A stretch of DNA of 64,000 bases from Corallochytrium limacisporum Hawaii. Its lineage: Eukaryota; Protista; Pluriformea. The notes under the pieces are model-generated. The model saw only the letters and a program-made list of their open reading frames with translations, searched no databases and was not told the origin of the DNA. The position numbers and the translations under genes are program-made. The stretch is taken from NCBI GenBank assembly GCA_002811645.1, contig PDIP01000034.1, positions 1-64,000 on the forward strand. The letters run 5' to 3'. This document shows positions 15,933 through 44,796 of the stretch, in pieces; the stretch's first letter is position 1; each line of letters opens with the position of its first letter.

Positions 15933-17408
15933 ATGGGTCAAGGTTCTTCTCTATTCCGCGAACCTCCAGCTCCCTCATTTTTTGGCGAGCCGGTGGAAGA
16001 GCATGCAGCAACCACAGACCCCATCTTTGCAGGCATATGCATTGCTTTTGCTGCTCTCTGGATTGGTTTGGTGCTGATCGCACCATCATTTATAGAAACG
16101 ACGGGTAAATCAGGTAAACGACCGATGATATACTACCTAATATTTGTTACGGTGAGTATGCTGATGGGCTTCACTGCCCTCGGGGCCAACTGGGGCAGTT
16201 CTTGGATCTATGCCTCCGCAACCAGCCACGTGCCCTATTCTGCTCTAATCGACTCAGAGATCAATGCCAAGATTGAGGTCTTTGTGCAGCTACGGGGCGT
16301 GAATATTACGCTGGATGCTGACGAGGCCAGTGAACAGGCCCTCGGACAAAAGATTTTCTTCAACGAACACTTCAATTGGCAGTGGGATCAAGGACGCCTT
16401 GGATTCGGTCGACTTGCCGGACAGATCAACCAGGACTTCCGTCGCGAGCAACAGGAAGGTACCCCAAAACCTATCCTTGACATTGTCGAATACTTCACCC
16501 CCGATCAAGATTTCTTCCGGTGGGGCCGCCACTACCGTCTTGCCGGCTACTACACGTCAATCATCATGTGGATGAGCCTGGTCACTTGGTTTGGCATGAA
16601 CGTGTTAACACTAGTTAACCTGAAATACGGCGGCTACATGAGCATGTGGACCGGTGGTTGGTGGATGGCCGCCGTACTTACCTATGACTATGTCCTCAAG
16701 AAGCAGTTCCTCGACCTAAAAATCCCTTTCCCCGAAGAGGAACTGGATGTGACCCGGAACTATGGATGGACATTCTGGTGGGTGGTGGCCGGTACGGTCC
16801 TCGCGTTTGTGTGGGGCTTCGCGCTAGTGTCGATCGGACGCGCCATGGAAGCGGCCCGTGTTCAAAAGCTGGCTCCGAACGTCCGCATCAAGCACCGTGG
16901 AATTGCCGGTAATGTGTGGTACCTGCTCACCCGCAAAGATCTCTACTCCAGCACAGACAAAATGTTCCACAACGTGCCACGCACTAGCGACTTGCCTGAC
17001 ATCAAGACGCAGAAGGATAGGAAAGTGTCTGTGTACACTGAGGAAGACATAATCGCTGTGAAGGACATTTCCTCAGACAGCAATAGTGGCAGTTCTGAAC
17101 TGACCCGGTCTAAATACAGCGCTGGTGGCCAGCGTGAGACCGCCGGAACAGAGACCGACACAGACCACTACCTAGACCCGGGACTTCCGATAGGCAATGG
17201 TTTAGCACGGTGCAATTCGTACCAATTGGATGACATGCCAGTCAACTATGAAAGCCACGGCCATGAGTACAATGTGCCAGTGGGTGTTGGACTAGTGCGC
17301 AGTTCTTTGGCATCGACCGGCTCGGATTCGTTACGGCCTCGACAGTCATTCGATTCCGGAGCAGGCTACTCCCACCGTGATAGTACAACGCCGATGTTGC
17401 CAAGGTGA
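15933..17408 (+). CDS. DUOXA: Dual oxidase maturation factor (DUOXA family)
   Basis: Five-TM layout with DUOXA-type motifs: GANWGSSW, VQLRGVNITLD (N-glycosylation NIT), FNEHFNWQW, GTPKPILDIVEYFTP, YRLAGYYTSIIMW and YGWTFW. These compare with human DUOXA1 GLGGVNITL / YNEEFTW / GLPDPVLYLAEKFTP / YRLAGHYTSAMLW (from memory). Long Ser-rich C-tail. Confidence 0.9.
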   Translation: MGQGSSLFREPPAPSFFGEPVEEHAATTDPIFAGICIAFAALWIGLVLIAPSFIETTGKSGKRPMIYYLIFVTVSMLMGFTALGANWGSSWIYASATSHVPYSALIDSEINAKIEVFVQLRGVNITLDADEASEQALGQKIFFNEHFNWQWDQGRLGFGRLAGQINQDFRREQQEGTPKPILDIVEYFTPDQDFFRWGRHYRLAGYYTSIIMWMSLVTWFGMNVLTLVNLKYGGYMSMWTGGWWMAAVLTYDYVLKKQFLDLKIPFPEEELDVTRNYGWTFWWVVAGTVLAFVWGFALVSIGRAMEAARVQKLAPNVRIKHRGIAGNVWYLLTRKDLYSSTDKMFHNVPRTSDLPDIKTQKDRKVSVYTEEDIIAVKDISSDSNSGSSELTRSKYSAGGQRETAGTETDTDHYLDPGLPIGNGLARCNSYQLDDMPVNYESHGHEYNVPVGVGLVRSSLASTGSDSLRPRQSFDSGAGYSHRDSTTPMLPR

Positions 17409-17547: not shown

Positions 17548-18768
17548 TCAGGATACTCTCGTAGACTCCCCTGCTGTGATTCCGTACTTGGCGGCTGCAG
17601 TGCTCACCCGCACACCAATCAGTTTGGACAGGATTTTGACCGAATCCACTGCCTTGAGTACAGTTTCTTTTGCACCCTTTTCGCGGTTCTCCAAGGAGAG
17701 CCAGAGTCGCAGAAGGTGGCGCCGCAGGGCAGGGTCTTCGGAGTCTTCATAGCCGGACCTGGCGTGAACAATGTAGTGGTTGCTCAGAAGCTGTATGTCG
17801 CCTGGTTGAAAGTCCATGGTCAATTGTATGCTCGGATCGTTGGCCAGGCGATCGTACTCCTGGATCACTTCCATTATTTTCGGATCCGGCTCAGGCATGA
17901 AGTCGTACTCCCAGACCGATGTGTAGTAGCCTGAGTGCCAGAAAGTTTTGAGATCCCCGTCGTAGTAACTCACAGGGCGAATCTTGAAGTAGCGAGTGTC
18001 ACCATCCCCGCGCGTGTCAAGATAGAAGTCTTCATAGAGATGGGGGATCAGATCGGGCCTTGTTTTGAGTAGTTCGTTGTAAATGGTTACGGAACTGGCG
18101 ATGCGTGACGTGCCGCCCTGCTTCGCGGGCTGAAGGCACATCAGTCCAACCACGTCGGCCGCATCGCAGTGAAAGAGGATATTTTCGTTTGTGCGGTATT
18201 GGCGGGTCTTGAGTTCTTCTAGTGTCTTGCGCTCATGTCCATAAAATTCGTCCCGGACGTGGCCCAGGAGCTCTCCGCGGCCGCTCTGCGCGCCTGGGAT
18301 ACCAAGCATTCTACCCAGGGCCCAGAAGAACAGTTCGCTCTGACCCACAGTCCAACGTTCCGTTGGGAGCCCACGAATAACCAAGAATCCCAAGCCATCG
18401 TGGTTCCTGGGATTCAGTACGTCTTTCCAACCCTCAACTATAGTGGCAAAGGCCGGATCGAAGTGCAGTTCGTTTTTGCTCAGGGCATCCATGGAGACAC
18501 CGGACGATTCCAACCGTTTGACTTCACGGTCAATGCCGTCAACTTCATCCGGAGTAAGGGTGACCATCCAATCCTCGGGCTTGAGGTCGATGCCTTTCCA
18601 CGCAGCCCGTCCTTCTATCGGAGTCATGCGGATTTCTCCGCTGTTCGGGCGGGAGAAGTAGTTCAGGCTCTGCATCATGATACTGCGTACTGCAGTTTTG
18701 TTCATGCCAAAGGACACGTAGGCCACTATTGCAGCCACCACTAACCACAAAAGATTCCGTCCCACCAT
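17548..18768 (-). CDS. TauD/TfdA-family Fe(II)/2-oxoglutarate dioxygenase with N-terminal signal/anchor
   Basis: Facial triad FHCDAAD...HARSGY, plus GGTSRIASS, FQPGDIQLLSN and RHLLRLWL. Hydrophobic N-terminus LLWLVVAAIVAYVSF. Confidence 0.88.
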   Translation of the reverse strand: MVGRNLLWLVVAAIVAYVSFGMNKTAVRSIMMQSLNYFSRPNSGEIRMTPIEGRAAWKGIDLKPEDWMVTLTPDEVDGIDREVKRLESSGVSMDALSKNELHFDPAFATIVEGWKDVLNPRNHDGLGFLVIRGLPTERWTVGQSELFFWALGRMLGIPGAQSGRGELLGHVRDEFYGHERKTLEELKTRQYRTNENILFHCDAADVVGLMCLQPAKQGGTSRIASSVTIYNELLKTRPDLIPHLYEDFYLDTRGDGDTRYFKIRPVSYYDGDLKTFWHSGYYTSVWEYDFMPEPDPKIMEVIQEYDRLANDPSIQLTMDFQPGDIQLLSNHYIVHARSGYEDSEDPALRRHLLRLWLSLENREKGAKETVLKAVDSVKILSKLIGVRVSTAAAKYGITAGESTRVS

Positions 18769-23530: not shown

Positions 23531-26500
23531 TCACTTCCCCAGTTGCGTCTTGACCTCTCGAACGGCGGCAATGATCGCTCCATCGTCCAGCTCTTGTGCC
23601 CGCTGCAGGGTGCTCAGCATCCTCGGCATCCATGCTCCACTGTTGCTCAGAGCCATGGACGCCTTGCGGAATTCCTTGGCCTTGCCATTGGCGCGGCGGA
23701 TGATACGCTCGCCCAAGCCCGCCATACGGGCAACGTTCATACCGTAACTCTTCGGGCATGCGCCTTCCGCGAGAGTGTATAAGAACACGACATCGCGGAT
23801 GTGATCATCTTCGATGACTTGCGAGGCGTTGAGGATCTCTCGGGCTTGCAGGCTACGTTCATGAACGTTCATGTCGGTTGTGGGGTCGGCATCATCGTTG
23901 ACCTGGGTGGAGGATTCAGGTGGGCAGTCCGTCTCCATACCGTTCTGATCATCTTCCTCATCGTCCTCATCCGTACCGCCAGCAGCCACACAGGCCATGT
24001 GTCCGAGCGCAACCTTTGGATGATCCTTCAATTCGTCCGTGAGGGAGTGGTAGTGGGTACTAAAGATGGCTCGACATGGTTGGTGGTTGACCATGTGTAG
24101 GATCGTGGCGTGGGCAATGGCATATCCATCAAATGTGGACGTACCGCGGCCGAGCTCGTCGAGGATGACCATTGAATCTTCAGTAGCTTCACGCAGAACA
24201 GTTGACGTCTCCCGTAGTTCGACCATGAATGTCGACTGTCCGGCCATCAGGTTGTCTGCGGCGCCTAAGCGTGTGAAGATGCGGTCCACAGGCGTCAAAC
24301 ACATAGCCTCCGCGGGCACGCGACAGCCCATCTGCGCCATGACAATGCCAAGACAGTTTTGGCGCAGCAGAGTGCTCTTGCCACCCATGTTCGGGCCCGT
24401 GAGCACCATGACACACCGGGTATCATTGCGCAAAGTGATCGAGTTTGGCACATATGCTTTGCCCGTGTCGTTAGCCAGCGGGAAACGAAGTTGAGTAACC
24501 TCCAGGAAAGGTGCCATACCCTCTGTACGCTCCACCAGTTCAGGCATGCACGACGGTTCCGCGAAGCTCAGCGACACCGAGGCAAGAGAGCAGAGACAGT
24601 CGAGCACAGACAGGGTGTGCATGAGCGGGCGGATACTGTCCGCTTTGGAGGCGAGGTCTTGCTGGAACTCTGCGAGAAGACGGCGCTGACAATTGTTGAA
24701 TATCTCTCCTGCCTCAATGTACTCCTGGTGTAGATCGGCAAAGTGAGGCGGCCAGTAGCGCTTGACGGCCTTAGATTGACTGCGCAGCGTCCAGTCGCGC
24801 GGAACATACTTGACATAGCGATCGGGCACTTCGACCTGGTATGACTCGTTGCCAACTTTCCGGTAGGAAAGGCCAATGGATGCCGGACGATTGACGTTAG
24901 CGTGTTCAGCCAACTCGCTCTGTAGTTGCGATAGTTCGCGATCAAACTGGATTTTGATCTCGTTCAGATCCTTCATGGCCTGGTCAAAGTTAGTGTTTGC
25001 TCCCGGCGCGGGCTCCAGTTCGCCGTCTTCCTTGGCCTTCCTTCGGTCAAAAGCTGTGCGAAAGAAGTCAAGAACTTCGTGGTAGCGAGGACAGTTTTGG
25101 CTCTCCGCATGGGCCGCACGGAGCAGTTCCAGCTCCTCTGCTGAGCGCCCGTCCGTACTCATGTGGTCGTGCAGTACTGTGAAGGGTCCTTCCAGAACGT
25201 ACTCCAGACCGTCCAAAAGCTTCAGGAATACTTCCAGCTTCAACTTGCCCGCGGTGGCACGGTGTATGAGGCGCTCGAGGTCAGGGATTGCCTTCATGCT
25301 CTTTTGCAGATCAATGAGCAAGTCCTGGCGCTCGATTAGATACTCCACGACCTCCTGGCGCTGTTTGATTGCATCCACGCGCCGCAAGGGGTGGCAGAGC
25401 CAAGTGCGGAACAGGCGTTTGCCAGCAGGAGTTGTGGCACGCTCCATAAGCTCGGCCAGGGTGCCTCGGCTGCCCCCATCTTCGTTCTCCAAGATCCATA
25501 GGTTACGCAATGCCAGACCGTCAAGTAGCAGTGACGTAGCGCTCTGCATGGGATCGTACCAGGCAAACCGGCCTCCTGGGATAGTCTCCGCGTCACGGTT
25601 GCTCAGCTTGGTCTGGAAGTACCATATGACACTACCAAAGGCCTCGAGTATACCAGGATAGCGGGGCATCCGGCTGCCGGTGCGCGCGTCCTGGACGGCT
25701 GCCGCAGACGTGCGCAAGGGCTCAGGCCATGAGGCACGCTCAGTACCTGTCGTGCCACCGAAATAATTCTCTCGCTCAATCATCCGCTCAGCCTGCGTGC
25801 AAGAAGGGAACTCCGTGCCTGGCTTAAGCTTGTTGATCTGTAGGTCAAGGCCGAGGCAACCATGAAGCAGCTTTGTGACACGAGCAATGTTGGGCTCGTC
25901 GGCCTTGAGAATAACTTCGCGGGGATTAGTCTGCAGCAACACGGTCTCCAGCTTTGAGAAGGCCAAGTCGTCATCGAGAACACTGAACATGAAGTGGCCC
26001 GCAGCTGTGTCGGCCAGCACAATGGAGAGGCGCACATCGCTGGTGGCTTGATCAGGGCCCCCAATGACCATCTTCTCATCCTCACCCTGCGATTGGACTG
26101 CCTCGCGCGTGGGTTCATAGTCCATGTGAATGGCCAGCAAGTAGGCTGGAAGATCGGATGCGCACAAATCTGCAGTGACAGTACCGGCAGTGATGACCTC
26201 TCGTAGTTTACGACCGATGATCTTTGACGTCTTTCCGGAGCCTTTAGCCTTTTCACGCATGCCCTTTGCGATGGAATTCTCCACCTCGTCTACACGGGCC
26301 ACCTTGAACCCGCGAGCCAGGAACTTTGCAGCCCAGGTTGGGTAGGTTGCCTCAGGTACCCCGACCATGCGCATATTTACCCGATCGGTAAGTTTGAGAT
26401 CGAACTCCTTGTGACCAATGTCGGCGTCCTTCTCATACAACTCGTAGAACTTTCCCTTCTTGAAGAACAGCACGGTGTTCCAGTATTCTTTCTTAATCTC

Positions 26501-27415
26501 CCAGTACTGTTTTTCAAACGGGGTAAACAGCGAAAAGTCCTTTGTGGGAATATGTAGTGTGTTCTCGTCATAGTCTGGATGATCCGACGTTCGCTTCTGG
26601 CCATCACGAACGTGGATCAGGAAGGGGAAGCGCTTCGAGTCAAACCCATGTGGGTTCTCGGACTCGATGCCCCGGTCCAGAATGGCATCTACCAGTCGGC
26701 GCTTGCTGCCCACCTTTGTGTTGCGAGCGGATGGGACTGTTGGTTTGTTCTCATCTTCTGTATCCACGTGGGCAAAACGGCTGAGCAGCGAAACCTTAGG
26801 TACATCGTTGTCATCCATGGTTCTCTCCAGCTTGGCGCGTTTGACACCAGAAGAAGACACTCGCGTATGGCTCGATTGTTTACGTTCAGCCTCATCAGCT
26901 GCTGCCAGCATTGCATCCATATCATCATCGTCGCCGTCGTCGTCGTCGTCGACTTCTCCTTCCGGATTGTACGCATCCCCGTCATCTGCATCATTTTCAC
27001 CATCGCTTTCGTCATTTGTGCCATCGTCATCGCTCTCAATCACTCGACTGCTGCGCTTGTTCGACTCAATCGCTGCTGCCCTACGTGGACGGGACGACTG
27101 TGCGGTTAGAGCAGGAACGGAGGCCGGCGTGGTCTTCATTGGAGCCTTGCTGACCTTCTTCGGCCCAGTTACGGCTGGTGACACGGATGGCACCATCCCA
27201 GATTGACTCATTTGGGATTGACTGTGACGTGCCGCTACCGGAGTGGGTGGCTCGCGTTGCGGCATCGGGGTACTGGTGGTTGACGTGTCATCGTTTTCTC
27301 GCGCTGGGTTCCTTCTGGGTGCCGAAGCAGGTGTCTTTGTAAAGAATGCCTTGAGACTTTTCTGCTTCATCCCACTGCCAGATTGTGTTGGCGTACTCAT
27401 TGGCAACGCCGGCAT
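23531..27415 (-). CDS. MSH6: DNA mismatch repair protein MSH6
   Basis: PIP box KQKSLKAFF; TPFEKQYWEIK and FFKKGKFYELYE (Phe-X-Glu); Walker A TGPNMGGKST; STFMVEL; DELGRGTSTFDG; FSTHYH; CPKSYGMNVARMAG. First ATG is at 27415 (the ORF-track start is a TTG). Confidence 0.97.
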   Translation of the reverse strand: MPALPMSTPTQSGSGMKQKSLKAFFTKTPASAPRRNPARENDDTSTTSTPMPQREPPTPVAARHSQSQMSQSGMVPSVSPAVTGPKKVSKAPMKTTPASVPALTAQSSRPRRAAAIESNKRSSRVIESDDDGTNDESDGENDADDGDAYNPEGEVDDDDDGDDDDMDAMLAAADEAERKQSSHTRVSSSGVKRAKLERTMDDNDVPKVSLLSRFAHVDTEDENKPTVPSARNTKVGSKRRLVDAILDRGIESENPHGFDSKRFPFLIHVRDGQKRTSDHPDYDENTLHIPTKDFSLFTPFEKQYWEIKKEYWNTVLFFKKGKFYELYEKDADIGHKEFDLKLTDRVNMRMVGVPEATYPTWAAKFLARGFKVARVDEVENSIAKGMREKAKGSGKTSKIIGRKLREVITAGTVTADLCASDLPAYLLAIHMDYEPTREAVQSQGEDEKMVIGGPDQATSDVRLSIVLADTAAGHFMFSVLDDDLAFSKLETVLLQTNPREVILKADEPNIARVTKLLHGCLGLDLQINKLKPGTEFPSCTQAERMIERENYFGGTTGTERASWPEPLRTSAAAVQDARTGSRMPRYPGILEAFGSVIWYFQTKLSNRDAETIPGGRFAWYDPMQSATSLLLDGLALRNLWILENEDGGSRGTLAELMERATTPAGKRLFRTWLCHPLRRVDAIKQRQEVVEYLIERQDLLIDLQKSMKAIPDLERLIHRATAGKLKLEVFLKLLDGLEYVLEGPFTVLHDHMSTDGRSAEELELLRAAHAESQNCPRYHEVLDFFRTAFDRRKAKEDGELEPAPGANTNFDQAMKDLNEIKIQFDRELSQLQSELAEHANVNRPASIGLSYRKVGNESYQVEVPDRYVKYVPRDWTLRSQSKAVKRYWPPHFADLHQEYIEAGEIFNNCQRRLLAEFQQDLASKADSIRPLMHTLSVLDCLCSLASVSLSFAEPSCMPELVERTEGMAPFLEVTQLRFPLANDTGKAYVPNSITLRNDTRCVMVLTGPNMGGKSTLLRQNCLGIVMAQMGCRVPAEAMCLTPVDRIFTRLGAADNLMAGQSTFMVELRETSTVLREATEDSMVILDELGRGTSTFDGYAIAHATILHMVNHQPCRAIFSTHYHSLTDELKDHPKVALGHMACVAAGGTDEDDEEDDQNGMETDCPPESSTQVNDDADPTTDMNVHERSLQAREILNASQVIEDDHIRDVVFLYTLAEGACPKSYGMNVARMAGLGERIIRRANGKAKEFRKASMALSNSGAWMPRMLSTLQRAQELDDGAIIAAVREVKTQLGK

Positions 27416-27715: not shown

Positions 27716-27723
27716 TTTCGCGC
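27716..27723. promoter_or_regulatory. E2F consensus site TTTCGCGC upstream of MSH6
   Basis: Exact match to TTTSSCGC about 300 nt upstream of the MSH6 ATG, inside a GC-rich island. Confidence 0.55.
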
Positions 27724-27961: not shown

Positions 27962-28918
27962 TTAGTGTTGCATGGTCTTGTTGGTGCCAAGGACGAGACG
28001 GCGACGGGTACTGCGCAAAGCGGGAGAGCCTGTCTTGGTCTGCAGAGCGGCTGCAAACAGCGGTGAGTCAGTTCCACTGGTGTTCTCCTTGTCGTGAACG
28101 CCGGGCATAATGGCACGGGCAGTGGGCGTGGAAGAGGCCTTGGTAGGAGTTGAGGTTCGCGAAGAGCAGGTGCCGTATGTGTTCGTTGTGTGTGTCTTCT
28201 TTACAATTGGTGAGAGTTCGTGCTCTTCTGATACCTCTGTGGTGGTCTTTCGTGTTATGGTCTTCTTACCTGGTGTTCCCTCGTACTCAACGTCAAAGTC
28301 GGAGTCATCACTGAACTCGCTGAGGGCCTCGAGCAGGGCATTCTCTTCCTCCGCGGCATCGATTGCTTCCAGGATTTCGTCAACGTTTATCTTTTCTTTC
28401 GGGCTGAAGGGAATGACATCGGTGGCCTGGCCCATGCCGTGCTGTGGTGTCTGACAAGCGGAGACAGAGACGGTCGATGCGGGCAGACGTCCCTTGGTCG
28501 GTGTCTGTACGCCTATGTCGTCGGTGGGGTCATTAACGCTGCTCTCTTCTATTTGTTCTTCTTCCTCAATGTCGACTACCGCAGTGCTCTTGCGCTTGAC
28601 AGGGGGTGGCGTAGCACACTGTGTAAAGGCACTTACTGATCCAGCCCGTACGGCGACAATTTCGTTGTGAAGGTGCGGGCTGCGCAACACGTTAATGGAC
28701 GGGCTTCGAGGATCAAAGACAGTGTGCTGCTGTATCTCCATCTTCTGACCCTGGAGCATTGCAGCAATCGGTGTTCTTAAGAGTCCGGGAGTGGGGCTCC
28801 GAGGGTCGAATGGATCAGCACAGATCCCGTATTCTGGTGTTTCGTCTTCGTAGGTCTGGAACTGCTGCTCGCTCTCGGAGAGCCCAAGGGTTTGAAGCAG
28901 TAAAGACAGGGTATCCAT
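27962..28918 (-). CDS. CDCA3: CDCA3/Tome-1-like cell-cycle protein (disordered, APC/C degrons)
   Basis: Two motifs, DPRSPTPGLLRTPI and DPRSPSINVLRSP (human CDCA3 has DPRSPSAGILRTPI and DPRSPTLGIARTP). HDKEN box near the C-terminus as in CDCA3; RRRLVLGTN fits the D-box; many S/T-P sites. ATG 28918 has aaacATG context; an upstream in-frame ATG exists at 29056. Confidence 0.72.
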   Translation of the reverse strand: MDTLSLLLQTLGLSESEQQFQTYEDETPEYGICADPFDPRSPTPGLLRTPIAAMLQGQKMEIQQHTVFDPRSPSINVLRSPHLHNEIVAVRAGSVSAFTQCATPPPVKRKSTAVVDIEEEEQIEESSVNDPTDDIGVQTPTKGRLPASTVSVSACQTPQHGMGQATDVIPFSPKEKINVDEILEAIDAAEEENALLEALSEFSDDSDFDVEYEGTPGKKTITRKTTTEVSEEHELSPIVKKTHTTNTYGTCSSRTSTPTKASSTPTARAIMPGVHDKENTSGTDSPLFAAALQTKTGSPALRSTRRRLVLGTNKTMQH

Positions 28919-29314
28919 GTTTCCGCCGTCTAAATTTCCTTTTTGTTGTCCCGGACCTTTCCCCGAGGCATGGCATAACCAATTCCAACAGCCCAGGGTC
29001 GGATGCTGAACTATCAAGTACCTTTTCGTTCGGAAGTTTTCGTTCTGGAGAAACATAGAGCCGCCGGCAGATCCGCACACCCCCGACGTCAATCTCGAAC
29101 CGCAACGTCATGTGCAATAAAGACAACATGGGAAAGGTGTTGGGACATTAAATTGCTCTGATGCTTGGGTGTGTAACATTTACAAAAGAGAAGGCCCAAC
29201 ACGATACACGGAAACGGAACGCGAAACCCGCTTTCGATACTTTAGGTAACTATTGCACCCAAATCTCCCCCTATCACGGCCGGGCTGGGGCCCCGCTTCG
29301 CCCCCTTTGTACCG

Positions 29315-29334
29315 TTCAAACCCTCCGCGCCAAA
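29315..29334 (-). promoter_or_regulatory. E2F/CDE + CHR tandem element
   Basis: The minus strand reads TTTGGCGCGG-AGGG-TTTGAA: E2F consensus TTTGGCGC overlapping a CDE-like CGCGG, a 4-nt spacer and canonical CHR TTTGAA. About 400 nt upstream of, and co-oriented with, the CDCA3-like ORF. Confidence 0.7.
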
Positions 29335-30382: not shown

Positions 30383-32542
30383 ATGTCTTTCGCAGCGGCG
30401 GCGGCAAAGGGCCGTGCCGGTGGGTCCGAGAAGACCAACTCCAAGGGACCGGCGTCGCCAAAGGTTGCACCAAGTACCAACGGTGCACCCAAAACGCAAC
30501 CCAAAACTGACGGCAGTGAAGACGAAGAGCTCCGCTTTGACTACTCTCTGACCAACTTGATTGGACGAGTTGTGCAGGTGGAGACCATGTCGGGTGCGAT
30601 CTATTCTGGTCTTTTGCACACATGGGAGCCTTCCGGTCCAAACATTGGTGGGATCAATGGTCTTGTGTTGTATCAGGCGCAGAAGATGGAAAATAGCGAG
30701 GTAGCGACCACAAAGGACAGCAGCAATCCCCTGCACTACATCAACCTGGGCGGGAACCCTGTGCTTAAGGAACTTGTGCTCCATGGCAAGGACATTGGTC
30801 GTGTCTACCACCCTGACGTAGAGTATAACCCCATTATTGGCAGCGCGGGCAACGTGGCACGGCAGAATTTCATCACAGACACGGGCATTTCCGGTGCGTC
30901 GGGCAATCTCGCTGAACGTACACTGGAAAAATTCGACTTCATGGCCCACGCCACGGACGCCAATGGTAAACCAGTCAAGAGTGGATCGGACCTCGACCTT
31001 GATGCGGAGGCACGTCGGATGAAGTCGACGCAGTGGGACCAATTTGGACAGCTGAACAAGAAGCAGCCTGTGCCAAAATCAGGCGCTGATTCATTGGACT
31101 GGCGGGCACCTGCCGCTGCGGATGATGCGCATGGCGCAGGCACAGACGGGGCAACTGCAGGAGGGAGCGAACACCATGATTTTGACAAATCGTTCGAGAC
31201 GCTATACACTACACCACTAAAGCGTGACGTCCACACACCGGAGCAAATCAGGCGGGCTGAAAAGCTCGCCGCAGAGATCGAGCGCAACAAAGTCAGCCGC
31301 CAGCGGGCTAATCTGGAGTTGGACGATGACGCGGACGAAGAAGCCAAGTACTCTGCCGTCGTACGTGATGAGCCGCAGAAACCAGCGGACATTGAAAAGA
31401 AAGCGGCTGCCGCAGCGGCAGCTGCTGCTGCTGCTGCGGAGGAAGACGAAAAGAAAGAGGAAGCAGAGAAGGCCGCTGCTGCTGCTGCTGCTGAATCAGC
31501 CGGCAAGAAGCCGCTGAAGCTTAATCCAAAGGCCAAACCTTTCGTGTTCAACCCAAACGCCGCGTCTTTTGTACCGAGCGGCCCGAAGAAGGAAGAACAG
31601 ACTGCAGCCGCCGGCGGCGATGAACCCGCGGCTGGATCAACAGAAGAACCAACAGCGGCAGAAACGGAGAATGCTGGTGATCAGGAGGCCCACTTTCCGG
31701 ATATTGGCTCCATGACTATAAGTTCCAACCGCCCCACTGTTCTGCTCTGCGAAGGTTTCAACACTGTGCGCCAGAAGGAGCTGCAGCAGTCCAGCAGCGG
31801 CAATGGCAATTCCCGGAACCAGGGCAGTGGTCAACAGGGCAGTGGCAAGGGCGGCAAGGGCAAGAAGGGTGGTAACAACCGCAACAATGCGGACGGTTCC
31901 AATCGTGGCCACAACCCGAGCTGGACCGGCGCCCAGAACGGTCACTCTCCCGCCCGCGGTGGTCAGGGACAGTCCTACGCCAATATTACAGTCTATAAGC
32001 AAGGCAAGGGCAGTGGCAATCAAAAGGGAGGCGCCAACCCAGGGCCCAACAATGCCAACAGTGCGGCCGCAGCAGCAGCAGCAGCAGCGCACAGCCAGAA
32101 CGCCGCTGCCTTCAATCCTTACGGGGTGCCAATGGGCGGTCCGATGATGGCCGCGGGCTATCCAGCCATGGCCAGTGGCCCCGGAGGGCCGCGAGGAACG
32201 CAGGGCGGGCCTCAACAGTTCCAACGTGGATCACAGGGCGCTGCAGCGGGGACTGCGGGAATGGTTCCTGGCATGATGCCTGGCATGATGCCCCCGAACT
32301 ACAATCCCATGATGGCGGGTCCCCCTGGAGCATTCGGCAACCCGGGAGCGATGATGATGATGACGGGTGCGCCACCGTATGGCTACATGATGCCGCCACA
32401 GGCCTACGGTCAGTACAGTCCGGGCATGCCCCCCCAGCAGCAGGGCGGTGGCGGTGGCGGTGGTCGCGGCAACCGCCGCAGCAGCAGCAATCAGTCGGGC
32501 GGCAATAGTAATGCCAACACCAACAATGGCAACAGTGGCTGA
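30383..32542 (+). CDS. ATXN2: Ataxin-2 / Pbp1 family RNA-binding protein
   Basis: LSm domain (LTNLIGRVVQVETMSGAIYSGLL), FITDTGIS, ERTLEKF, WDQF, LsmAD (LYTTPL..AEKLAAEIE..DEEAKYSAVVR), PAM2 motifs (KLNPKAKPFVFNPNAASFVP) and a Met/Pro/Gly/Gln/Asn-rich low-complexity tail. Confidence 0.92.
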   Translation: MSFAAAAAKGRAGGSEKTNSKGPASPKVAPSTNGAPKTQPKTDGSEDEELRFDYSLTNLIGRVVQVETMSGAIYSGLLHTWEPSGPNIGGINGLVLYQAQKMENSEVATTKDSSNPLHYINLGGNPVLKELVLHGKDIGRVYHPDVEYNPIIGSAGNVARQNFITDTGISGASGNLAERTLEKFDFMAHATDANGKPVKSGSDLDLDAEARRMKSTQWDQFGQLNKKQPVPKSGADSLDWRAPAAADDAHGAGTDGATAGGSEHHDFDKSFETLYTTPLKRDVHTPEQIRRAEKLAAEIERNKVSRQRANLELDDDADEEAKYSAVVRDEPQKPADIEKKAAAAAAAAAAAAEEDEKKEEAEKAAAAAAAESAGKKPLKLNPKAKPFVFNPNAASFVPSGPKKEEQTAAAGGDEPAAGSTEEPTAAETENAGDQEAHFPDIGSMTISSNRPTVLLCEGFNTVRQKELQQSSSGNGNSRNQGSGQQGSGKGGKGKKGGNNRNNADGSNRGHNPSWTGAQNGHSPARGGQGQSYANITVYKQGKGSGNQKGGANPGPNNANSAAAAAAAAAHSQNAAAFNPYGVPMGGPMMAAGYPAMASGPGGPRGTQGGPQQFQRGSQGAAAGTAGMVPGMMPGMMPPNYNPMMAGPPGAFGNPGAMMMMTGAPPYGYMMPPQAYGQYSPGMPPQQQGGGGGGGRGNRRSSSNQSGGNSNANTNNGNSG

Positions 32543-38043: not shown

Positions 38044-41000
38044 ATGGACCCGTACCATCATCCCGAAGTGTCGGAGGATGATGCTTCCCCGTCTCGGTCA
38101 AATAGTTCACCTTCCCATGCGGTCGCGATCAAAGTTTCCGACCACAGTCAACAGCAAAGCCCAGGCGGAGGCAAGAGCCTGGCCTTCTCAGAAACGGACC
38201 TGCGCGGCACCTCGCCGACTTCGGTCGTTGAGGACCATGAGAACACCCCACTGAAGCGCCACTACAGTCAGCCACTAGGCGCCACGCTCGTCGCCAGCAC
38301 CGACCGGTCGAAATTGAAAAAGAAAAAGAACCAGAGTTGGTTCGGCAAGCTCTTCGGCGGTGCTCGCTCGCGAAAGGCGTCGGACAGGAGTGACATGTCG
38401 GGGGAGAGTGTCGGAGCGGGACCGGATATGATGGCACCCCGTCGCAGTAGTGCGGACTCTGCCACCCTGCGTGAGGCTTTCCCGCGTACGAACCATGACG
38501 AGAAAATCCGCAAGCAGCGGTCCCACCAACCGCAGGGTCGCCTCAGTGGCGAAGGCGGTGGCGGTCAGGGCAGCGTCGAGGGCGACAGTTCCGGGTTGCT
38601 CAGTGCGCAGGAGATGTCTCAGATTATTGACACCTATGGGTCACCGACTGGGCGCTCCGGCTTTGCCGGAGGGCAAGGCTCAGGGGGAGTCATGTACGGA
38701 AAGATAGGTTTTCTGCACATTTCCATCATTGGCGCGCGTAACTTGCTCGTGCCAGGACCAGGCGGATCAATTATGACGCGCCGTGAAGCAGAGCGGAGTG
38801 ATGCGACTATGAGTGTGGGCCTGTACTGCAGGCAGTTGGTGGCCCACGAAGTTGCATCACAACTTTCCGTCGACGACTCGCAGCGGGACTCGAAGGTCTC
38901 CCTCGGAAGTAGCGGCCGCGGCAGTGGCGTGGGATTGCAAGGAAAGGGCGCCGAGCGTCTGCCGCAGAGGGCAGCTGGAGGCAGAGTGCTGCAATCATCT
39001 ACAAATTGGGTCACGGCCAGTGACCGGCCCGTGTGGGACGAGAAGGAACGCATTATGGCCAATACGCAAGATGTGGTGGAGCTTGTCGTGTGCATGCACT
39101 ACGGCGACGACATGGACGAATCCGATGACATCATGCCTGGTCACTTGTCGCGGGGATCATCACCGGAGCAGGGCACGATTGACGACTTGCGGAATTCCCG
39201 GGATGGGCGACACGTGCCAATCTCCGACTCAGAGAGCGACAGCGATGATGACAGCTTGGACAACGGCCTAATGATGCCGGACAAAAAGGGTGTGCCGCGG
39301 ATGCCTTCCGCTGTGCCGGATGATCCGCGCGCTGGTGAGGTAATTGGTCGTACCCGGTTTACCATTGGCCTCAAGTGCCGTCCAGGCCTGGAGGTCCGCG
39401 GATGGCTGCCACTGACACCACAGGGTGCTGTGCTCGTGGTGCTGCGGTTCGAACCATTCACACCGTCACAGATCAATGATCTCTTCTCGCTAAAGGAAAT
39501 TGGACCGGCCAGTGACATAAGCGACGCAGAGATCAGCGAGCGGAAAGTCAAACTGTCTCCGGCGAGAAGCAGTCCTTTACGTGCACAGTTCAGTCAGAAC
39601 AACGATGACGGAGGGGGCGGGTCGAAAACGGGGTCCTACAAAGAGGACAGTACCTTGGACGAGCAAATGAAAAAGATGAAGAAGGGGTACGACGTCGGTG
39701 TATCGATGAGTGACCTTGCAGCCATGACCGGAGATCACATTATCCGTCCGGCTGCGGCTCCCATGAAACCTGTGACCTGCGATATCTGCAATCATTTAAT
39801 TTGGTCATCTATGGTGCGCTGCCTGCGGTGCCAGGCCATGGCCCATCGTAAGTGTGTGGAACGCCGGCCGGAAGGCCTCAGTCCATGCAGCGCGGGTCCG
39901 ACGCCGTCCATTTTCGGCGGCAAGTCACCGTCCTCCGGGACTCAGAGTAAGACCTCGCGTGGGGCCAAGAGTTCGAAGGTTGGATCGTCACTGCGGCTGC
40001 CCAAAGGACCCTTGGTGGGACCCAAGTCGCAGGATATCACCATCAACGTGATCAAGGCCGCCGAAGATTCGGACGCTGAGCATGAGCACTCGGCCCCCGT
40101 GACAGATGACATGGCAAAGGATGACATGGTGCTCCACAAGAAGAGCTCTAACAGGGCTGCAAAGGTATCCCAGCAGACAATGGGGGAACGGACTCGAAGT
40201 ATGCGGTCATTCCCGAGTTCCGAAGATATTCCGCGTATTGATCGAGACATGGAAGAAGGCACCTTTGATGTCATCATTTCCAACATCAATGCTCGTCAGT
40301 TGAAGGAGATGCGCTTGTCTCGGGCTTCTGGAGTTAATCTGAGTGGGGAAAGCGACAAGCCTGCCATGGTGTCGCCCCTGTATGTCGTAATTTACTGGGC
40401 TGGTCAGTTGTTCCGGACAGGTCCGGCCACAGAGATCCGGCCCGGTGTGCTGGGGTGGCCACAGAATCGATTCCAGTTCGTCCACCGTGAGCGCGTGGAT
40501 CGCTTGGCATCGCAATCGCTTGTCGTGGAGCTCCACTCTGGCGATCGCACGGAGGAAGAACGCGGTGGCAAGGACAAGAAGGAAACCAAAGGATGGCTCA
40601 GTGGACTGTTCGGCGGCGGTGGCCAATCTTCGAATGAGCACACAGCAAGCAAAGATAGTCTACGCCAGTCTACGTACAGCAATTCTGCGCCTTCCGATCT
40701 GCGCAGCGCGCCGACCGCGGACGACTTGATTGGCTTTGTCATCTTTGACCTGGCTTCAGTGCGGAAGGGGCCCATGCACTACGACTGGCGCTTGGTAAAG
40801 AATGACAAGTTCCAGGGTCGTATTTCTTTTGATTTGGTTATGGATCAGAATGTGGTAGTAACCTTCCGCTTCAAAGACGCTAGGTTCCACCTCACTTCCC
40901 AGGCAGCCGGTGCGGGTGAGGACCCCACCTTGACGCTGCCATCGCTCAAGTCTGCGCTCAAGGGCATTGGCGGTAGCAGTACGTCGCTGAATGAAATGGC

Positions 41001-44000
41001 CGCCGAGGCAGAGGCTAATGCGGCAGCTACCAAAAATAGCATCACTCTCCGCAGTGAAACATTCTACATGGACCCCGCCGAGGACGAGGAGCTTTCTCGC
41101 CCTTCATCTGGCCATCGGAGGAATGCGGATATGAAGCTCGTGCATCCGTACTACTACACCCTCGACTACAATGGTGCGTTGCCCGTGAGCAAGGCCAGTA
41201 CTGTGACTCTGTCACCGACTTGGTCCACCACAAAGCAGATGGTCACTATTAGTGTGCGTTCGAGCGTGCGCGATCTCATCTCCACTGCCTTGCGTGTGAC
41301 ACTGTGGCGCCTACCCCCTCGGTACGTCAGCGCAGACACACCGGTGGACCAAATTCTTCGCTGGGCAAACTTGGACGCCACAGGCATTGCTGCAACTGGC
41401 TCAACTAATTCGGTAAACAGCGGGGACCGCGAGCATGGACCCAAGGGTGATGAAGTAGTGTGCAAGTGCTGGGTCTCTCTTTCGAAGTACCTGGACATTG
41501 GATCCAAGTTTGGCCAGGTGGAACGTGACCTTGCGATTGAGAGGCGCAACATTAACGAACGTCTATTTCGCCACGGTCTGCAATGTGGACAGTTGCGTGG
41601 GCGAATGGAGGTAGAGGGGCTGCCGAGCGTTGTGCCCATGATGGCTGGTGTGAGCAGCGAGACTGGTGTTACACCACATGCAATTATCCTCAATGTTGAC
41701 GATCCGACACTGAGTGATGCGTCTGCGTCAAACACCGGCGCGAATTCGCACATGTCTCTCACAAAGGCCCAGCAACGAGCTCTGCCCAAAGAACTGCGCA
41801 ACTTGGAGAAGGACTATGAAGAGCTCGTGAAACGGCATCACCGGCCGACCGCCAAGTTGGCCACGCCCAAGGCGACTGGCGGAGCTTTTGTCAAGCGATC
41901 CGATTTGGGCTCCAAAACTCAATCGCCGTTCTACTCGCACCAGGCCAGTACCACTACTCCGGTAAGCAATGAGCAGGTGCACGATATTCTGAATCGCATC
42001 CTGTCCACGCTGCAGGCGAGCGCAAAGCGCAGTCTGCGAACCTTTGTATACCAGGACCACGCTGGACTGAACTATGCACGCAGATTGTACCTGAATCTTT
42101 GGGATTTGCTCATTTCTTACGCCGACAGTGCTGCTTACACGGATCGTCGACGTTACTTCCAGATCATTACGGCAGTGACCCGTCGGTCCGAACTGACAAA
42201 CGAACTTCCGGCCTGGAGTAGCAATCCGGAGGGTCTGCTTACAAAGCCCGCGGATGTCATGTTTGTGCAGTGTCTGCGTGTAGTGCTGAATAAGACGGTG
42301 AACTATATTCTGGTCAAGATGGGCAAGCATGCCGGCTCCTACGATGCCCTTCGGGACTTTTCCACCACCATCTTTGTGTACGCGTTTCTCTACCAGCCGT
42401 GGTTGCGTAAGTGCTTCTGCGAGGAACTCCTCAGCGATCAAGAGCGTTATAAACGCATCATTCGTGAGTGGGTGAGTGCGGAATGGGACATTAATGATTG
42501 CAGAAGATGGATGACACCCCAGGCAACGGAGACACATGGTGCGAGCATGGCAATGTTTTCGTCGATCGACATGAAAGATCTCATTGACCGCGCACCGGCC
42601 AAGACGAAGAAAGGTCTGGGCGCCCTGGATCATCTCACATCAGGCCTGAATGAGGATGAAATTGTCTCCAAGATGCACGAGATTCTGCACCAGCGCCTCA
42701 GACACCGTGGTATCTTCTTCTTTGGCTTTGTGCAGCAGCTAATGAAGCTAGTCGGCAGCAGCGCGGATGCGAAAGGCGTTGACTATTCGTGGCACCATCT
42801 GGCTGGGTACCCACAGGTCCTTAAGGCAGCGCTGATGGAAATGCGCCGGCGCAAAGTGGAAGCGTACCCCGATGCTCTCATGGATACGGTGCGATCATTA
42901 CAACGCGATGAGGACACGGTAAACACGCTTATGCACATAGTCGTGGGACGCAGTAGTGTCTACAATTTGCAGCAGGTATATGCCAGTCTGCAGTTCCTGG
43001 ACGTAGTGTTGGAAGGCATTCGGCAGCGTGCCATGCGTCGGAACACCAACAATAATTTAATCCAATACGTGGCCGCGTCTGCGGCAGCCAAGGCACTGCG
43101 TCAGAACCAAAACTCGGAGTCCGAAGACGGCCGCGCGCGGTCCGATATTTCCCACAGTGAGGTCCAGCGAGCGGCGGAGGCGCTACAGATCCACCAGCGA
43201 CCTACACGCGTCGGTCGCACTCGGTACGACTCGACGCGTTCTGAAGTGTATGACCCCTTGTCTGACATTGGTGGCACAAGCCCGGGCGGTGGAGGTTCTA
43301 GCAACGCTATGCTCGGTATGGGCATGCTCGCTGCCATTGAACAGCGCCGCCTAAATGACATGGCGGGCGGTGCAGTGATTGATGGCACGGCCGCTCTGGC
43401 TATGGCCCAGAAGGAGAGCTCTAGCATGTACTTCTCCGTCTCAGATGTTGTCATCATCAGTGCCTATTTGCCTGAGAAGTTTGATTATGACTTCCTGCTT
43501 CGGACGCTAACCATTTTGATTGATCAGGAACACGTCGAGATTATGGCCATGACCCTGCGCCTGATCTACTATAATCTTGACCTCATGGGCCCAAGCCGTG
43601 CCCCGCGATTGGTCGAGAGTCTCTTTGACGAGAATCGCTTCTACCGGTTCCTAATGCATTTTGATCTGCAGGTTCGTAAGGCCTTCATGCACGTCATGTT
43701 CTCAATGATTTATTATGAGTTGTACCTTCAGGGTGTCCTAGCTGAACGGCGACGTGAGGTGCTCGGTGATGACTACGAAACGGTGTTGCACACGCAGATT
43801 TCTACTGGTGACGACACCTCCCTGCGACGCATGGTCAGCGTTGGCGGCGGCGCACGTGACGCTGGGGGCACCGCTGGCCGCAGCCTGAGCCGAAAGTCAT
43901 CTGTTGCTTCAGTCCTCTCCGCTCGTGAGCCAAGCGCAGCAATCGGCATTCCTCGCTCGAATTCGGCACGCGAATCGCATGCTTCCGTGTCTGGGGCATC

Positions 44001-44796
44001 GCCGGTTGCGGCAACCCTGGACGAGCGAAGCCGACAGCGTGCCGCATCGCAGCCTATGTCTGCGTCCGCACCCGGTGGTGGTCACGGCTTCCCAGCCTCC
44101 ATGGAAGAGGGACCCGACGCACGCGCGTCTTCGTCCACTCTCGGGGTAAGGAGTGACTATGGTGGCTCTCTAACCATACAGAAAGACCCGCCTGAACGAG
44201 CGACGAGTCCGGATCTGATGCTCCCCGGCATCGCTGCCTTTGGAGAAATGGTCGAGGAACAGGACTTTGTCATGGACTGGCAGATGGTCAGCCGCGAGGA
44301 AGGAGTCGATGCAAACATCGCATATTTTTCCCGAGTCGCAGCCATTTACGAGGAGCGACTCTCCTTTTTGCAGACGCTCGACATCGAAGAGTGTCGCAAG
44401 AAGACCCCGGCTGAACTGGACGCCATGCTGCCATTTAGTCGGTACCTGCTCCCGTATGTGCGCTATACACAAGCGGAATTGCCTGTCATTCGCGAACGAT
44501 TCGTATCATTGAATGGTGTGCTGCCTTTGCCGCCGGCGCTGATACAGCTCAAGAAGCAGCGGGCCGCGAAAGCCAGTAGCGGCGCTGTTGTGCATGCAGC
44601 TATCGACGAGCACCCGGACGAGGGCGACGCCAACGGCACCAAGACTACTGCCTCGAAGGACAAGCCCGCGGTGCCTGTTCCAGACGTTCTCCCTGCAGCC
44701 GGACAAAAGGGCATTCCTGGCGAAAGACCGCAGCTTGAGGTCCTCACTCAAGTCGATATGGTCGAGGATGTCGACGTCGAGAAATTGGGTGCCTGA
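38044..44796 (+). CDS. Large C2/C1-domain protein with DUF1765-like C-terminal region (2250 aa)
   Basis: C2-like strands GFLHISIIGARNLL...PVWDE...IGRTRF...GWLPLTPQGAVLVVLRF; C1 zinc finger H-x12-CDIC...CLRCQAMAHRKC...C; second C2 (GTFDVIISNINARQL...DDLIGFVIFDL...GRISFDL). C-terminal FDYDFLL..LIYYNL..FYRFLMHFDLQVRKAFMHVM resembles fungal DUF1765 (tentative). Confidence 0.8.
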   Translation: MDPYHHPEVSEDDASPSRSNSSPSHAVAIKVSDHSQQQSPGGGKSLAFSETDLRGTSPTSVVEDHENTPLKRHYSQPLGATLVASTDRSKLKKKKNQSWFGKLFGGARSRKASDRSDMSGESVGAGPDMMAPRRSSADSATLREAFPRTNHDEKIRKQRSHQPQGRLSGEGGGGQGSVEGDSSGLLSAQEMSQIIDTYGSPTGRSGFAGGQGSGGVMYGKIGFLHISIIGARNLLVPGPGGSIMTRREAERSDATMSVGLYCRQLVAHEVASQLSVDDSQRDSKVSLGSSGRGSGVGLQGKGAERLPQRAAGGRVLQSSTNWVTASDRPVWDEKERIMANTQDVVELVVCMHYGDDMDESDDIMPGHLSRGSSPEQGTIDDLRNSRDGRHVPISDSESDSDDDSLDNGLMMPDKKGVPRMPSAVPDDPRAGEVIGRTRFTIGLKCRPGLEVRGWLPLTPQGAVLVVLRFEPFTPSQINDLFSLKEIGPASDISDAEISERKVKLSPARSSPLRAQFSQNNDDGGGGSKTGSYKEDSTLDEQMKKMKKGYDVGVSMSDLAAMTGDHIIRPAAAPMKPVTCDICNHLIWSSMVRCLRCQAMAHRKCVERRPEGLSPCSAGPTPSIFGGKSPSSGTQSKTSRGAKSSKVGSSLRLPKGPLVGPKSQDITINVIKAAEDSDAEHEHSAPVTDDMAKDDMVLHKKSSNRAAKVSQQTMGERTRSMRSFPSSEDIPRIDRDMEEGTFDVIISNINARQLKEMRLSRASGVNLSGESDKPAMVSPLYVVIYWAGQLFRTGPATEIRPGVLGWPQNRFQFVHRERVDRLASQSLVVELHSGDRTEEERGGKDKKETKGWLSGLFGGGGQSSNEHTASKDSLRQSTYSNSAPSDLRSAPTADDLIGFVIFDLASVRKGPMHYDWRLVKNDKFQGRISFDLVMDQNVVVTFRFKDARFHLTSQAAGAGEDPTLTLPSLKSALKGIGGSSTSLNEMAAEAEANAAATKNSITLRSETFYMDPAEDEELSRPSSGHRRNADMKLVHPYYYTLDYNGALPVSKASTVTLSPTWSTTKQMVTISVRSSVRDLISTALRVTLWRLPPRYVSADTPVDQILRWANLDATGIAATGSTNSVNSGDREHGPKGDEVVCKCWVSLSKYLDIGSKFGQVERDLAIERRNINERLFRHGLQCGQLRGRMEVEGLPSVVPMMAGVSSETGVTPHAIILNVDDPTLSDASASNTGANSHMSLTKAQQRALPKELRNLEKDYEELVKRHHRPTAKLATPKATGGAFVKRSDLGSKTQSPFYSHQASTTTPVSNEQVHDILNRILSTLQASAKRSLRTFVYQDHAGLNYARRLYLNLWDLLISYADSAAYTDRRRYFQIITAVTRRSELTNELPAWSSNPEGLLTKPADVMFVQCLRVVLNKTVNYILVKMGKHAGSYDALRDFSTTIFVYAFLYQPWLRKCFCEELLSDQERYKRIIREWVSAEWDINDCRRWMTPQATETHGASMAMFSSIDMKDLIDRAPAKTKKGLGALDHLTSGLNEDEIVSKMHEILHQRLRHRGIFFFGFVQQLMKLVGSSADAKGVDYSWHHLAGYPQVLKAALMEMRRRKVEAYPDALMDTVRSLQRDEDTVNTLMHIVVGRSSVYNLQQVYASLQFLDVVLEGIRQRAMRRNTNNNLIQYVAASAAAKALRQNQNSESEDGRARSDISHSEVQRAAEALQIHQRPTRVGRTRYDSTRSEVYDPLSDIGGTSPGGGGSSNAMLGMGMLAAIEQRRLNDMAGGAVIDGTAALAMAQKESSSMYFSVSDVVIISAYLPEKFDYDFLLRTLTILIDQEHVEIMAMTLRLIYYNLDLMGPSRAPRLVESLFDENRFYRFLMHFDLQVRKAFMHVMFSMIYYELYLQGVLAERRREVLGDDYETVLHTQISTGDDTSLRRMVSVGGGARDAGGTAGRSLSRKSSVASVLSAREPSAAIGIPRSNSARESHASVSGASPVAATLDERSRQRAASQPMSASAPGGGHGFPASMEEGPDARASSSTLGVRSDYGGSLTIQKDPPERATSPDLMLPGIAAFGEMVEEQDFVMDWQMVSREEGVDANIAYFSRVAAIYEERLSFLQTLDIEECRKKTPAELDAMLPFSRYLLPYVRYTQAELPVIRERFVSLNGVLPLPPALIQLKKQRAAKASSGAVVHAAIDEHPDEGDANGTKTTASKDKPAVPVPDVLPAAGQKGIPGERPQLEVLTQVDMVEDVDVEKLGA

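Follow-up and report, generated by a model that had tools for sequence, protein, structure and literature searches.

An intronless open reading frame of 318 amino acids, at 27962-28918 on the reverse strand of the window (the whole 64-kb stretch of DNA analysed here), very probably encodes a member of the CDCA3/Tome-1/Msb1l family, to judge from its sequence. The protein is a divergent member of a known family, and the range of that family is deeper than the original prediction had proposed. The gene and its product comprise the following features, all on the reverse strand.

27962..28918: very probable CDCA3/Msb1l-family open reading frame, 318 amino acids, mostly disordered (translation, EukProt, contig coverage, AlphaFold)
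28919..28964: likely 5' UTR, 46 bases 5' of the ATG (contigs of both runs)
28766..28813: repeat unit 1, (PF)DPRSPT..RTPI, amino acids 36-51 (motif positions, profile)
28673..28720: repeat unit 2, (VF)DPRSPS..RSP, amino acids 67-82 (motif positions, profile)
28082..28096: KEN box HDKEN, amino acids 275-279 (sequence motif)
27980..28006: D-box-like RxxLxxxxN (RRRLVLGTN), amino acids 305-313 (sequence motif)
28889..28909: predicted N-terminal helix, amino acids 4-10, where the family mostly has Met-Gly (AlphaFold)
28319..28384: predicted acidic amphipathic helix, amino acids 179-200, the sole region with pLDDT >80 (AlphaFold)

The open frame was obtained by translation of the reverse strand, and EukProt holds the identical sequence as a called protein. 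In two runs from two studies, both presumed to be RNA, joint-free contigs cover 27965-28963 and 27971-28964, although neither starts nor transcription can be demonstrated from such contigs, and stretches that they leave uncovered count as no evidence. This cover, comprising the reading frame and approximately 45 bases upstream, fits an intronless gene with its ATG at 28918. A longer form of 364 amino acids, starting at the in-frame ATG at 29056, is disfavoured by the EukProt call and the contig ends. Run X2 carries four coding differences (S16R, T27A, A97A, and F288L), none of which falls in a motif. The gene is flanked by MSH6 (23531-27415, reverse strand) and by an ataxin-2/Pbp1 gene (30383-32542, forward strand). 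The latter is divergent from the CDCA3-family gene, and in run X2 differs by at least 14 substitutions and two in-frame indels in alanine-rich or low-complexity parts.

Were the gene an animal contaminant, or the host itself an animal, nothing pre-metazoan would follow from it. Such an origin could appeal to CCT5, scoring 879 bits against mammalian and 718 bits against yeast chains, and to eIF3b, scoring 665 bits against mammalian and 486 and 340 bits against fungal chains. However, MSH6 and ataxin-2/Pbp1 flank the gene at matching GC, all 16 non-overlapping long ORFs are single frames without introns, questin-oxidase-like, TauD and DUF1765 genes are present in the window, and both runs cover the gene together with its neighbours; we regard an animal source as barely credible. 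Judged from the neighbouring genes rather than from a tree, the host is likely an intron-poor unicellular holozoan, possibly Corallochytrium, which is poor in introns. In any event, the argument for the age of the family is independent of this host, since named choanoflagellate and amoebozoan members carry it.

Two copies of the unit DPRSP-x5-R[TS]P are found near the N-terminus, beginning at amino acids 38 and 69. The first, DPRSPTPGLLRTPI, spans amino acids 38-51 (28807-28766), and the second, DPRSPSINVLRSP, spans amino acids 69-81 (28714-28676). Even a single unit was recovered in none of 200,000 shuffles of the 318-amino acid protein, and the pair is far beyond chance. Each degron taken singly is modestly above chance, with KEN in 6,641 of 200,000 shuffles (3.3%), [DE]KEN in 921 (0.5%), and RxxLxxxxN in 4,694 (2.3%). 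Both units, the HDKEN box and the RxxLxxxxN motif lie where the original prediction had placed them, and its description of an S/T-P-rich protein holds, with 16 S/T-P sites counted, of which three are full CDK sites. It had also considered the protein recognisable only by short motifs, which is true as regards Pfam, where no family was matched at E<=10. A pair of units together with a C-terminal KEN is likewise found in fish CDCA3 proteins (P0095 and P0117).

A search with the full-length protein retrieved the query alone among 2,440 candidates. With amino acids 33-85 as the query, 14 non-self proteins were recovered from 89 candidates, every one with two to five units, including CDCA3(-like) entries from scallop (Pecten; E 0.06) and shrimp (Penaeus; E 0.6), as well as proteins without a name from Ciona (E 4e-7) and Blattella (E 1e-5). 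A profile of the two-unit region then gave 683 matches at E<=10 among 7,989 scored; the unit is present in all of the 120 matches listed, in at least two copies in 119 of them, and nine of the 120 are named CDCA3(-like) and three msb1l. Conversely, when 15 NCBI-named animal CDCA3/msb1l proteins were made into a profile, without the 318-amino acid protein and with no human sequence in it, the 318-amino acid protein scored 45.6 bits (P 4.6e-16, or about E 3e-6 at 5.8e9 sequences), as compared to 11.8 bits or less in 2,000 shuffles. This reciprocal test is not fully independent, as the named seeds came from searches begun with the 318-amino acid protein. A single-unit profile gave 37.9 bits, with at most 13.5 in 20,000 shuffles. 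Profile searches thus connect the protein and animal CDCA3/msb1l both ways, bearing out the claim of a CDCA3 homologue.

When 1.84 billion representatives were searched without an index, 665 matches were obtained at E<=0.001, and among the 150 listed, all 101 that were new possess the unit; the E-value of the 318-amino acid protein itself is no evidence here, because the search profile included its fragment. The pair is therefore not widespread in unrelated proteins, the outcome that would have told against the original prediction, and is instead restricted to one small eukaryotic family. Proteins named msb1l and proteins named CDCA3 fall in one profile match set. ESM Atlas leads pointed to Msb1l and to unnamed arthropod and chordate clusters (0.77-0.92), with Msb1l third at 0.90, which is weak by the calibration of the tool. 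One match, P0086, has three units and bears the UniRef label 'Exophilin 5', which was judged a mislabel. The repeat as a family feature is derived here from the matched sequences, and a DPRSP repeat in CDCA3 was not described in the titles and abstracts searched.

Animal CDCA3 proteins are similarly disordered, with tandem DPRSP-x5-RTP units near the N-terminus, a KEN and a D-box in the C-terminal half, and, in the human gene, a CHR-type promoter element, for which there is a candidate here. The fish CDCA3 P0117 aligns with amino acids 11-81 at 35% (E 1e-6, pairwise). In contrast to animal CDCA3, the 318-amino acid protein has no Met-Gly start, its second unit ends in RSP, no ABBA-like linker was identified, and its tail is without detectable similarity besides KEN. 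A tail profile of 29 KEN-ending members, in which the features sought were RSPL...NSP...QxK, scored amino acids 91-318 at 5.2 bits, near the 99th percentile of 5.4 in 5,000 shuffles, and that score comes from DKEN alone. With the tail this near to noise, homology to CDCA3 rests on the repeat.

It could be supposed that a short motif arose convergently for a common partner, in a protein not descended from the gene of CDCA3, a view in keeping with the lack of significant similarity beyond approximately 50 residues and with the differences in the N-terminus and in degron order. Yet the motif comprises eight positions whose spacing is fixed, and it recurs in tandem close to the N-terminus in a protein that is disordered; the unit is never fused to a Pfam domain in eight members scanned; matches are few in the 1.84 billion, with no real member in the prokaryote and viral scans; and a KEN and a candidate CHR-type element accompany it, as in human CDCA3. 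Convergence is very improbable against this background, and common descent is the reading adopted here.

Disorder, as originally described, is evident in the AlphaFold model (16-row alignment), with a mean pLDDT of 52, a pTM of 0.22, and helices at amino acids 4-10 and 179-200 only. For the 318-amino acid protein no Pfam family (E<=10), PDB sequence match (repeat profile) or Foldseek match was found; the Foldseek result is uninformative owing to the low confidence of the model. An N-terminal Met-Gly, a predicted myristoylation signal, begins 154 of 189 full-length members and is missing here; four dictyostelid members lack it too, and its absence was treated as a difference between lineages and not a family-defining one. 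Amino acids 11-16 pair in the pairwise alignment with the first six residues of a fish CDCA3, and may possibly be a relic myristoylation signal behind a short helix, a weak and post hoc lead: such a motif occurs within the first 20 amino acids in 187 of 100,000 shuffles, having been picked after it was seen.

The family extends well outside animals. Seven of the 20 selected matches that were looked up carry a species name, these being the sponge Oscarella pearsei and six non-animal species, for three of which the lineage was looked up: Diaphanoeca grandis, a choanoflagellate; Squamamoeba japonica, a cutosean amoeba; and four dictyostelids (Tieghemostelium lacteum, Cavenderia fasciculata, Dictyostelium purpureum, and D. 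citrinum). Three species-named members score 69-84 bits with the 15-protein animal profile. The choanoflagellate and amoebozoan proteins (Diaphanoeca P0055, DLAC_10438 of Tieghemostelium, DFA_03889 of Cavenderia, DICPUDRAFT_85169 of D. purpureum, that of D. citrinum, and Squamamoeba P0154) are all hypothetical or unnamed in the databases. Like the 318-amino acid protein they have the DPRSP unit, including the RSP variant that is common among dictyostelid members, and a disordered S/T-P-rich tail; they differ in having three to seven units as opposed to two, and a KEN in one of the six. Met-Gly is kept by the Diaphanoeca and Squamamoeba members. Arthropod Msb1l also shares the DPRSP repeat, but has three units and a Met-Gly start, and in many cases an SxIP-like or other C-terminal motif that is missing from the 318-amino acid protein.

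The presence of amoebozoan members makes the repeat older than the opisthokont split and, given vertical descent, it likely dates to the amoebozoan-opisthokont ancestor or earlier. A pre-metazoan origin is upheld by the choanoflagellate and amoebozoan members, and the age had been understated. Among the matches listed (120 of 683 and 150 of 665, many without species), no name from fungi, plants or any other group outside Amorphea appeared. Descriptions of non-animal CDCA3 members were not encountered in the titles and abstracts searched. An automatic InterPro/PANTHER family entry may already list such proteins.

A tandem DNA pattern retrieved 18 stretches from prokaryote genomes (for the GAT-start half of codon space only), and 5 viral-contig and 49 metagenome stretches (for the GAC-start half). 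With the named profile, no stretch from prokaryotes or viruses exceeds 15 bits, and those in which a reading frame matches are simple repeats or GC-rich frames. Real family members are found at 13 of the 49 metagenome loci, one of which (L051) is Diaphanoeca-like. Two others, L032 (204-1385, forward strand) and L057 (131-1315, reverse strand), have seven units, Met-Gly, 63% GC and a variant spacer; these could represent a lineage beyond Amorphea, and hence a wider range. Four loci (L005, L009, L014, and L026) are short tandem DNA repeats of bacteria that read as DPRSP-like stretches in more than one frame, and thereby produce false motif matches.

With regard to function, the features of the protein speak, on balance, somewhat in favour of a disordered phosphoprotein timed to mitosis, in which the tandem repeats would provide docking sites for phosphatases of the SCP/CTDSP type and the KEN and D-box would bring about clearance by APC/C-Cdh1 in G1. 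The S/T-P sites would very likely be phosphorylated by a proline-directed kinase (CDK). Destruction by APC/C-Cdh1 at mitotic exit, clearing the protein in G1 by way of the KEN and D-box, is probable. Human CDCA3 is reported to be disordered and to possess a D-box, with the KEN box required for Cdh1 binding (PMC8163776, PMC9926468). The D-box of the human protein (R198) precedes its KEN (K258; PMC8163776), whereas the KEN comes first in the 318-amino acid protein, the reverse of 30 of the 42 members that have both degrons. A KEN is found in 66 of 189 full-length members and in one of the six named non-animal members, and this scarcity indicates that degrons are not a constant of the family.

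CDCA3 has been described as an F-box-like factor in Wee1 degradation (PMC3418557, PMC3638832, PMC13662394). A CDCA3 orthologue acting as an F-box-like SCF (Skp1-Cul1) adaptor, with Wee1 degradation leading to mitosis, would accord with the role reported for the Xenopus and human proteins in these papers, and with the delay of Cdk1 activation in Xenopus oocytes depleted of Cdca3 (PMC13662394). The same oocyte study, however, considers it unlikely that the meiotic effect depends on Wee1, and the repeat is the sole conserved feature. Pfam detected no F-box in the 318-amino acid protein (E<=10), nor at E<=0.01 in the four named animal members that were scanned, and AlphaFold predicts no three-helix fold in the 318-amino acid protein. 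An adaptor of this type is thus improbable. The framing of the protein as a mitotic regulator holds in part: the APC/C degrons are present, if individually weak and in an order opposite to that of most animal members, but nothing supports a role in Wee1 degradation or as an F-box protein.

The case for phosphatase docking begins with the composition of the unit. Of 606 distinct contexts, 530 have S or T directly after DPRSP and 356 have a hydrophobic residue directly before it, the latter against a background of 24%. As a comparison of how the two might work, and not of membership, the unit F/L-D-P-R-S-P-S/T parallels the Pol II CTD heptad Y-S-P-T-S-P-S in its Pro at -2, Ser-Pro, S/T at +2, hydrophobic residue at -4 and tandem arrangement; unlike in the CTD, the DPRSP units are spaced by linkers and are followed by an I-x-R-T-P element that is missing from the CTD. 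The likeness suggests that the protein might act as a decoy that binds phosphatases. P-x-S-P also matches the generic site of proline-directed kinases. CDCA3 is reported to be an SCP1 binder or substrate, a link taken here from secondary citations (PMC7281111 citing Kim and Bahk 2014; PMC6594944). For the CTD, the sequence that SCP1 recognises is given as Ser2-Pro3-Thr4-pSer5, a hydrophobic pocket accommodating Pro3, and the SCP1 binders obtained by phage selection have (V/L)FxP in common (PMC4163886, PMC11011526); unit 2 of the 318-amino acid protein opens with V-F-D-P. Tentatively, then, the unit [hydrophobic]-D-P-R-S-P-[S/T] might mimic the CTD heptad. The first Pro of the unit would then occupy the hydrophobic SCP pocket and the phospho-Ser the active site, and the copies would help to hold mitotic phosphorylation, either by competing as a substrate or by targeting the phosphatase as an adaptor. 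The protein would compete for or target an SCP phosphatase around mitotic entry, and would then be removed by APC/C-Cdh1. This reading leaves the invariant second element (I-x-R-T-P) unexplained.

Alternatively, the repeats may be sites of multisite CDK phosphorylation or docking, for Cks1, Pin1 or another reader of phosphorylated S/T-P, in an Acm1-like APC/C substrate or pseudo-substrate inhibitor, with the CTD likeness incidental. The two invariant S/T-P sites per unit at fixed spacing, the total of 16 such sites, the KEN, the D-box and the acidic helix are all compatible with this arrangement. The position two residues before the second Thr is mostly E/D/T/S/P in the family, and not the hydrophobic residue of the Cks1 consensus; moreover, many members are without degrons, whereas the repeats are always there. 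An Acm1-like use of KEN, D-box and ABBA is the model put forward for human CDCA3 and Cdh1 (PMC9926468, PMC8163776). We consider this alternative unlikely, and phosphatase docking by the repeats is retained below.

A candidate for transcriptional control lies upstream of the gene.

29315..29334, reverse strand: candidate E2F/CDE, 4-nt spacer and CHR (TTTGAA), 397-416 bp upstream of the ATG (definition from PMC4176359)

On the gene strand, 29334-29315 reads TTTGGCGCGG, four bases, and TTTGAA. A CDE, a 4-nt spacer and a CHR make up the canonical layout, and TTTGAA is given as the commonest CHR and as that of human CDCA3 (PMC4176359). The composite is the only one in the window, where 0.20 are expected and one turns up in 16 of 100 shuffles, and of 16 window genes the CDCA3-family gene is the one with an E2F-then-CHR composite upstream. 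In shuffles of the 461-bp upstream region, it occurs in 33-556 of 20,000 according to the pattern (p 0.002-0.03), the patterns having been written after the site was seen. Each half alone (E2F site; TTTGAA) is at chance level, with 12 E2F sites in the window against 9.8 expected. The candidate lies approximately 350 bp beyond the contig ends, as compared with the +/-200 bp typical of human genes (PMC4176359), and no CDE/CHR composite was found upstream of nine metagenome members, most of which have no located promoter. Transcription late in the cell cycle, through this element and a DREAM/MuvB-type complex, may be given about even weight. Elsewhere, an E2F-consensus site at 27716-27723, approximately 300 bp upstream of the MSH6 ATG (27415), fits a G1/S gene.

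More speculatively, CDCA3 might be a module as old as Amorphea (amoebozoans and opisthokonts), an SCP ligand by tandem CTD-heptad mimicry that is switched on through DREAM/CHR and off through APC/C, and not a Wee1 F-box protein, with the whole circuit, promoter element included, already present in unicellular relatives of animals; so complete a picture is rather doubtful. As a marker of proliferation in cancer CDCA3 is cited widely, and yet its mechanism hangs on the single F-box/Wee1 model, which the conserved sequence does not mirror. The distant members expose what selection has kept in amoebae, choanoflagellates and animals, namely a 14-residue tandem unit, which provides an exact target for mutagenesis and a specific partner hypothesis (SCP phosphatases), and the gene is present in Dictyostelium species, a tractable model. 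A regulator regarded as animal would move back to the amoebozoan-opisthokont ancestor, in a clean case of an old family missed by Pfam.

Several other genes in the window merit mention. DuoxA, a dual oxidase maturation factor known mainly from animals, is encoded at 15933-17408 (forward strand; Pfam E 1.8e-57) in what is likely a unicellular host. The questin-oxidase-like gene (1341-2684, forward strand) and the TauD dioxygenase gene (17548-18768, reverse strand) belong to families typical of fungi and bacteria, and are possible old transfers. An intronless gene at 38044-44796 (forward strand) encodes 2,250 amino acids with C1 and DUF1765 domains. Lastly, 7109-10054 (forward strand) encodes a protein of 981 amino acids, possibly a receptor, whose start is signal-like and which contains numerous cysteine-rich repeats along with several hydrophobic segments; no Pfam match was found for it (E<=0.01).
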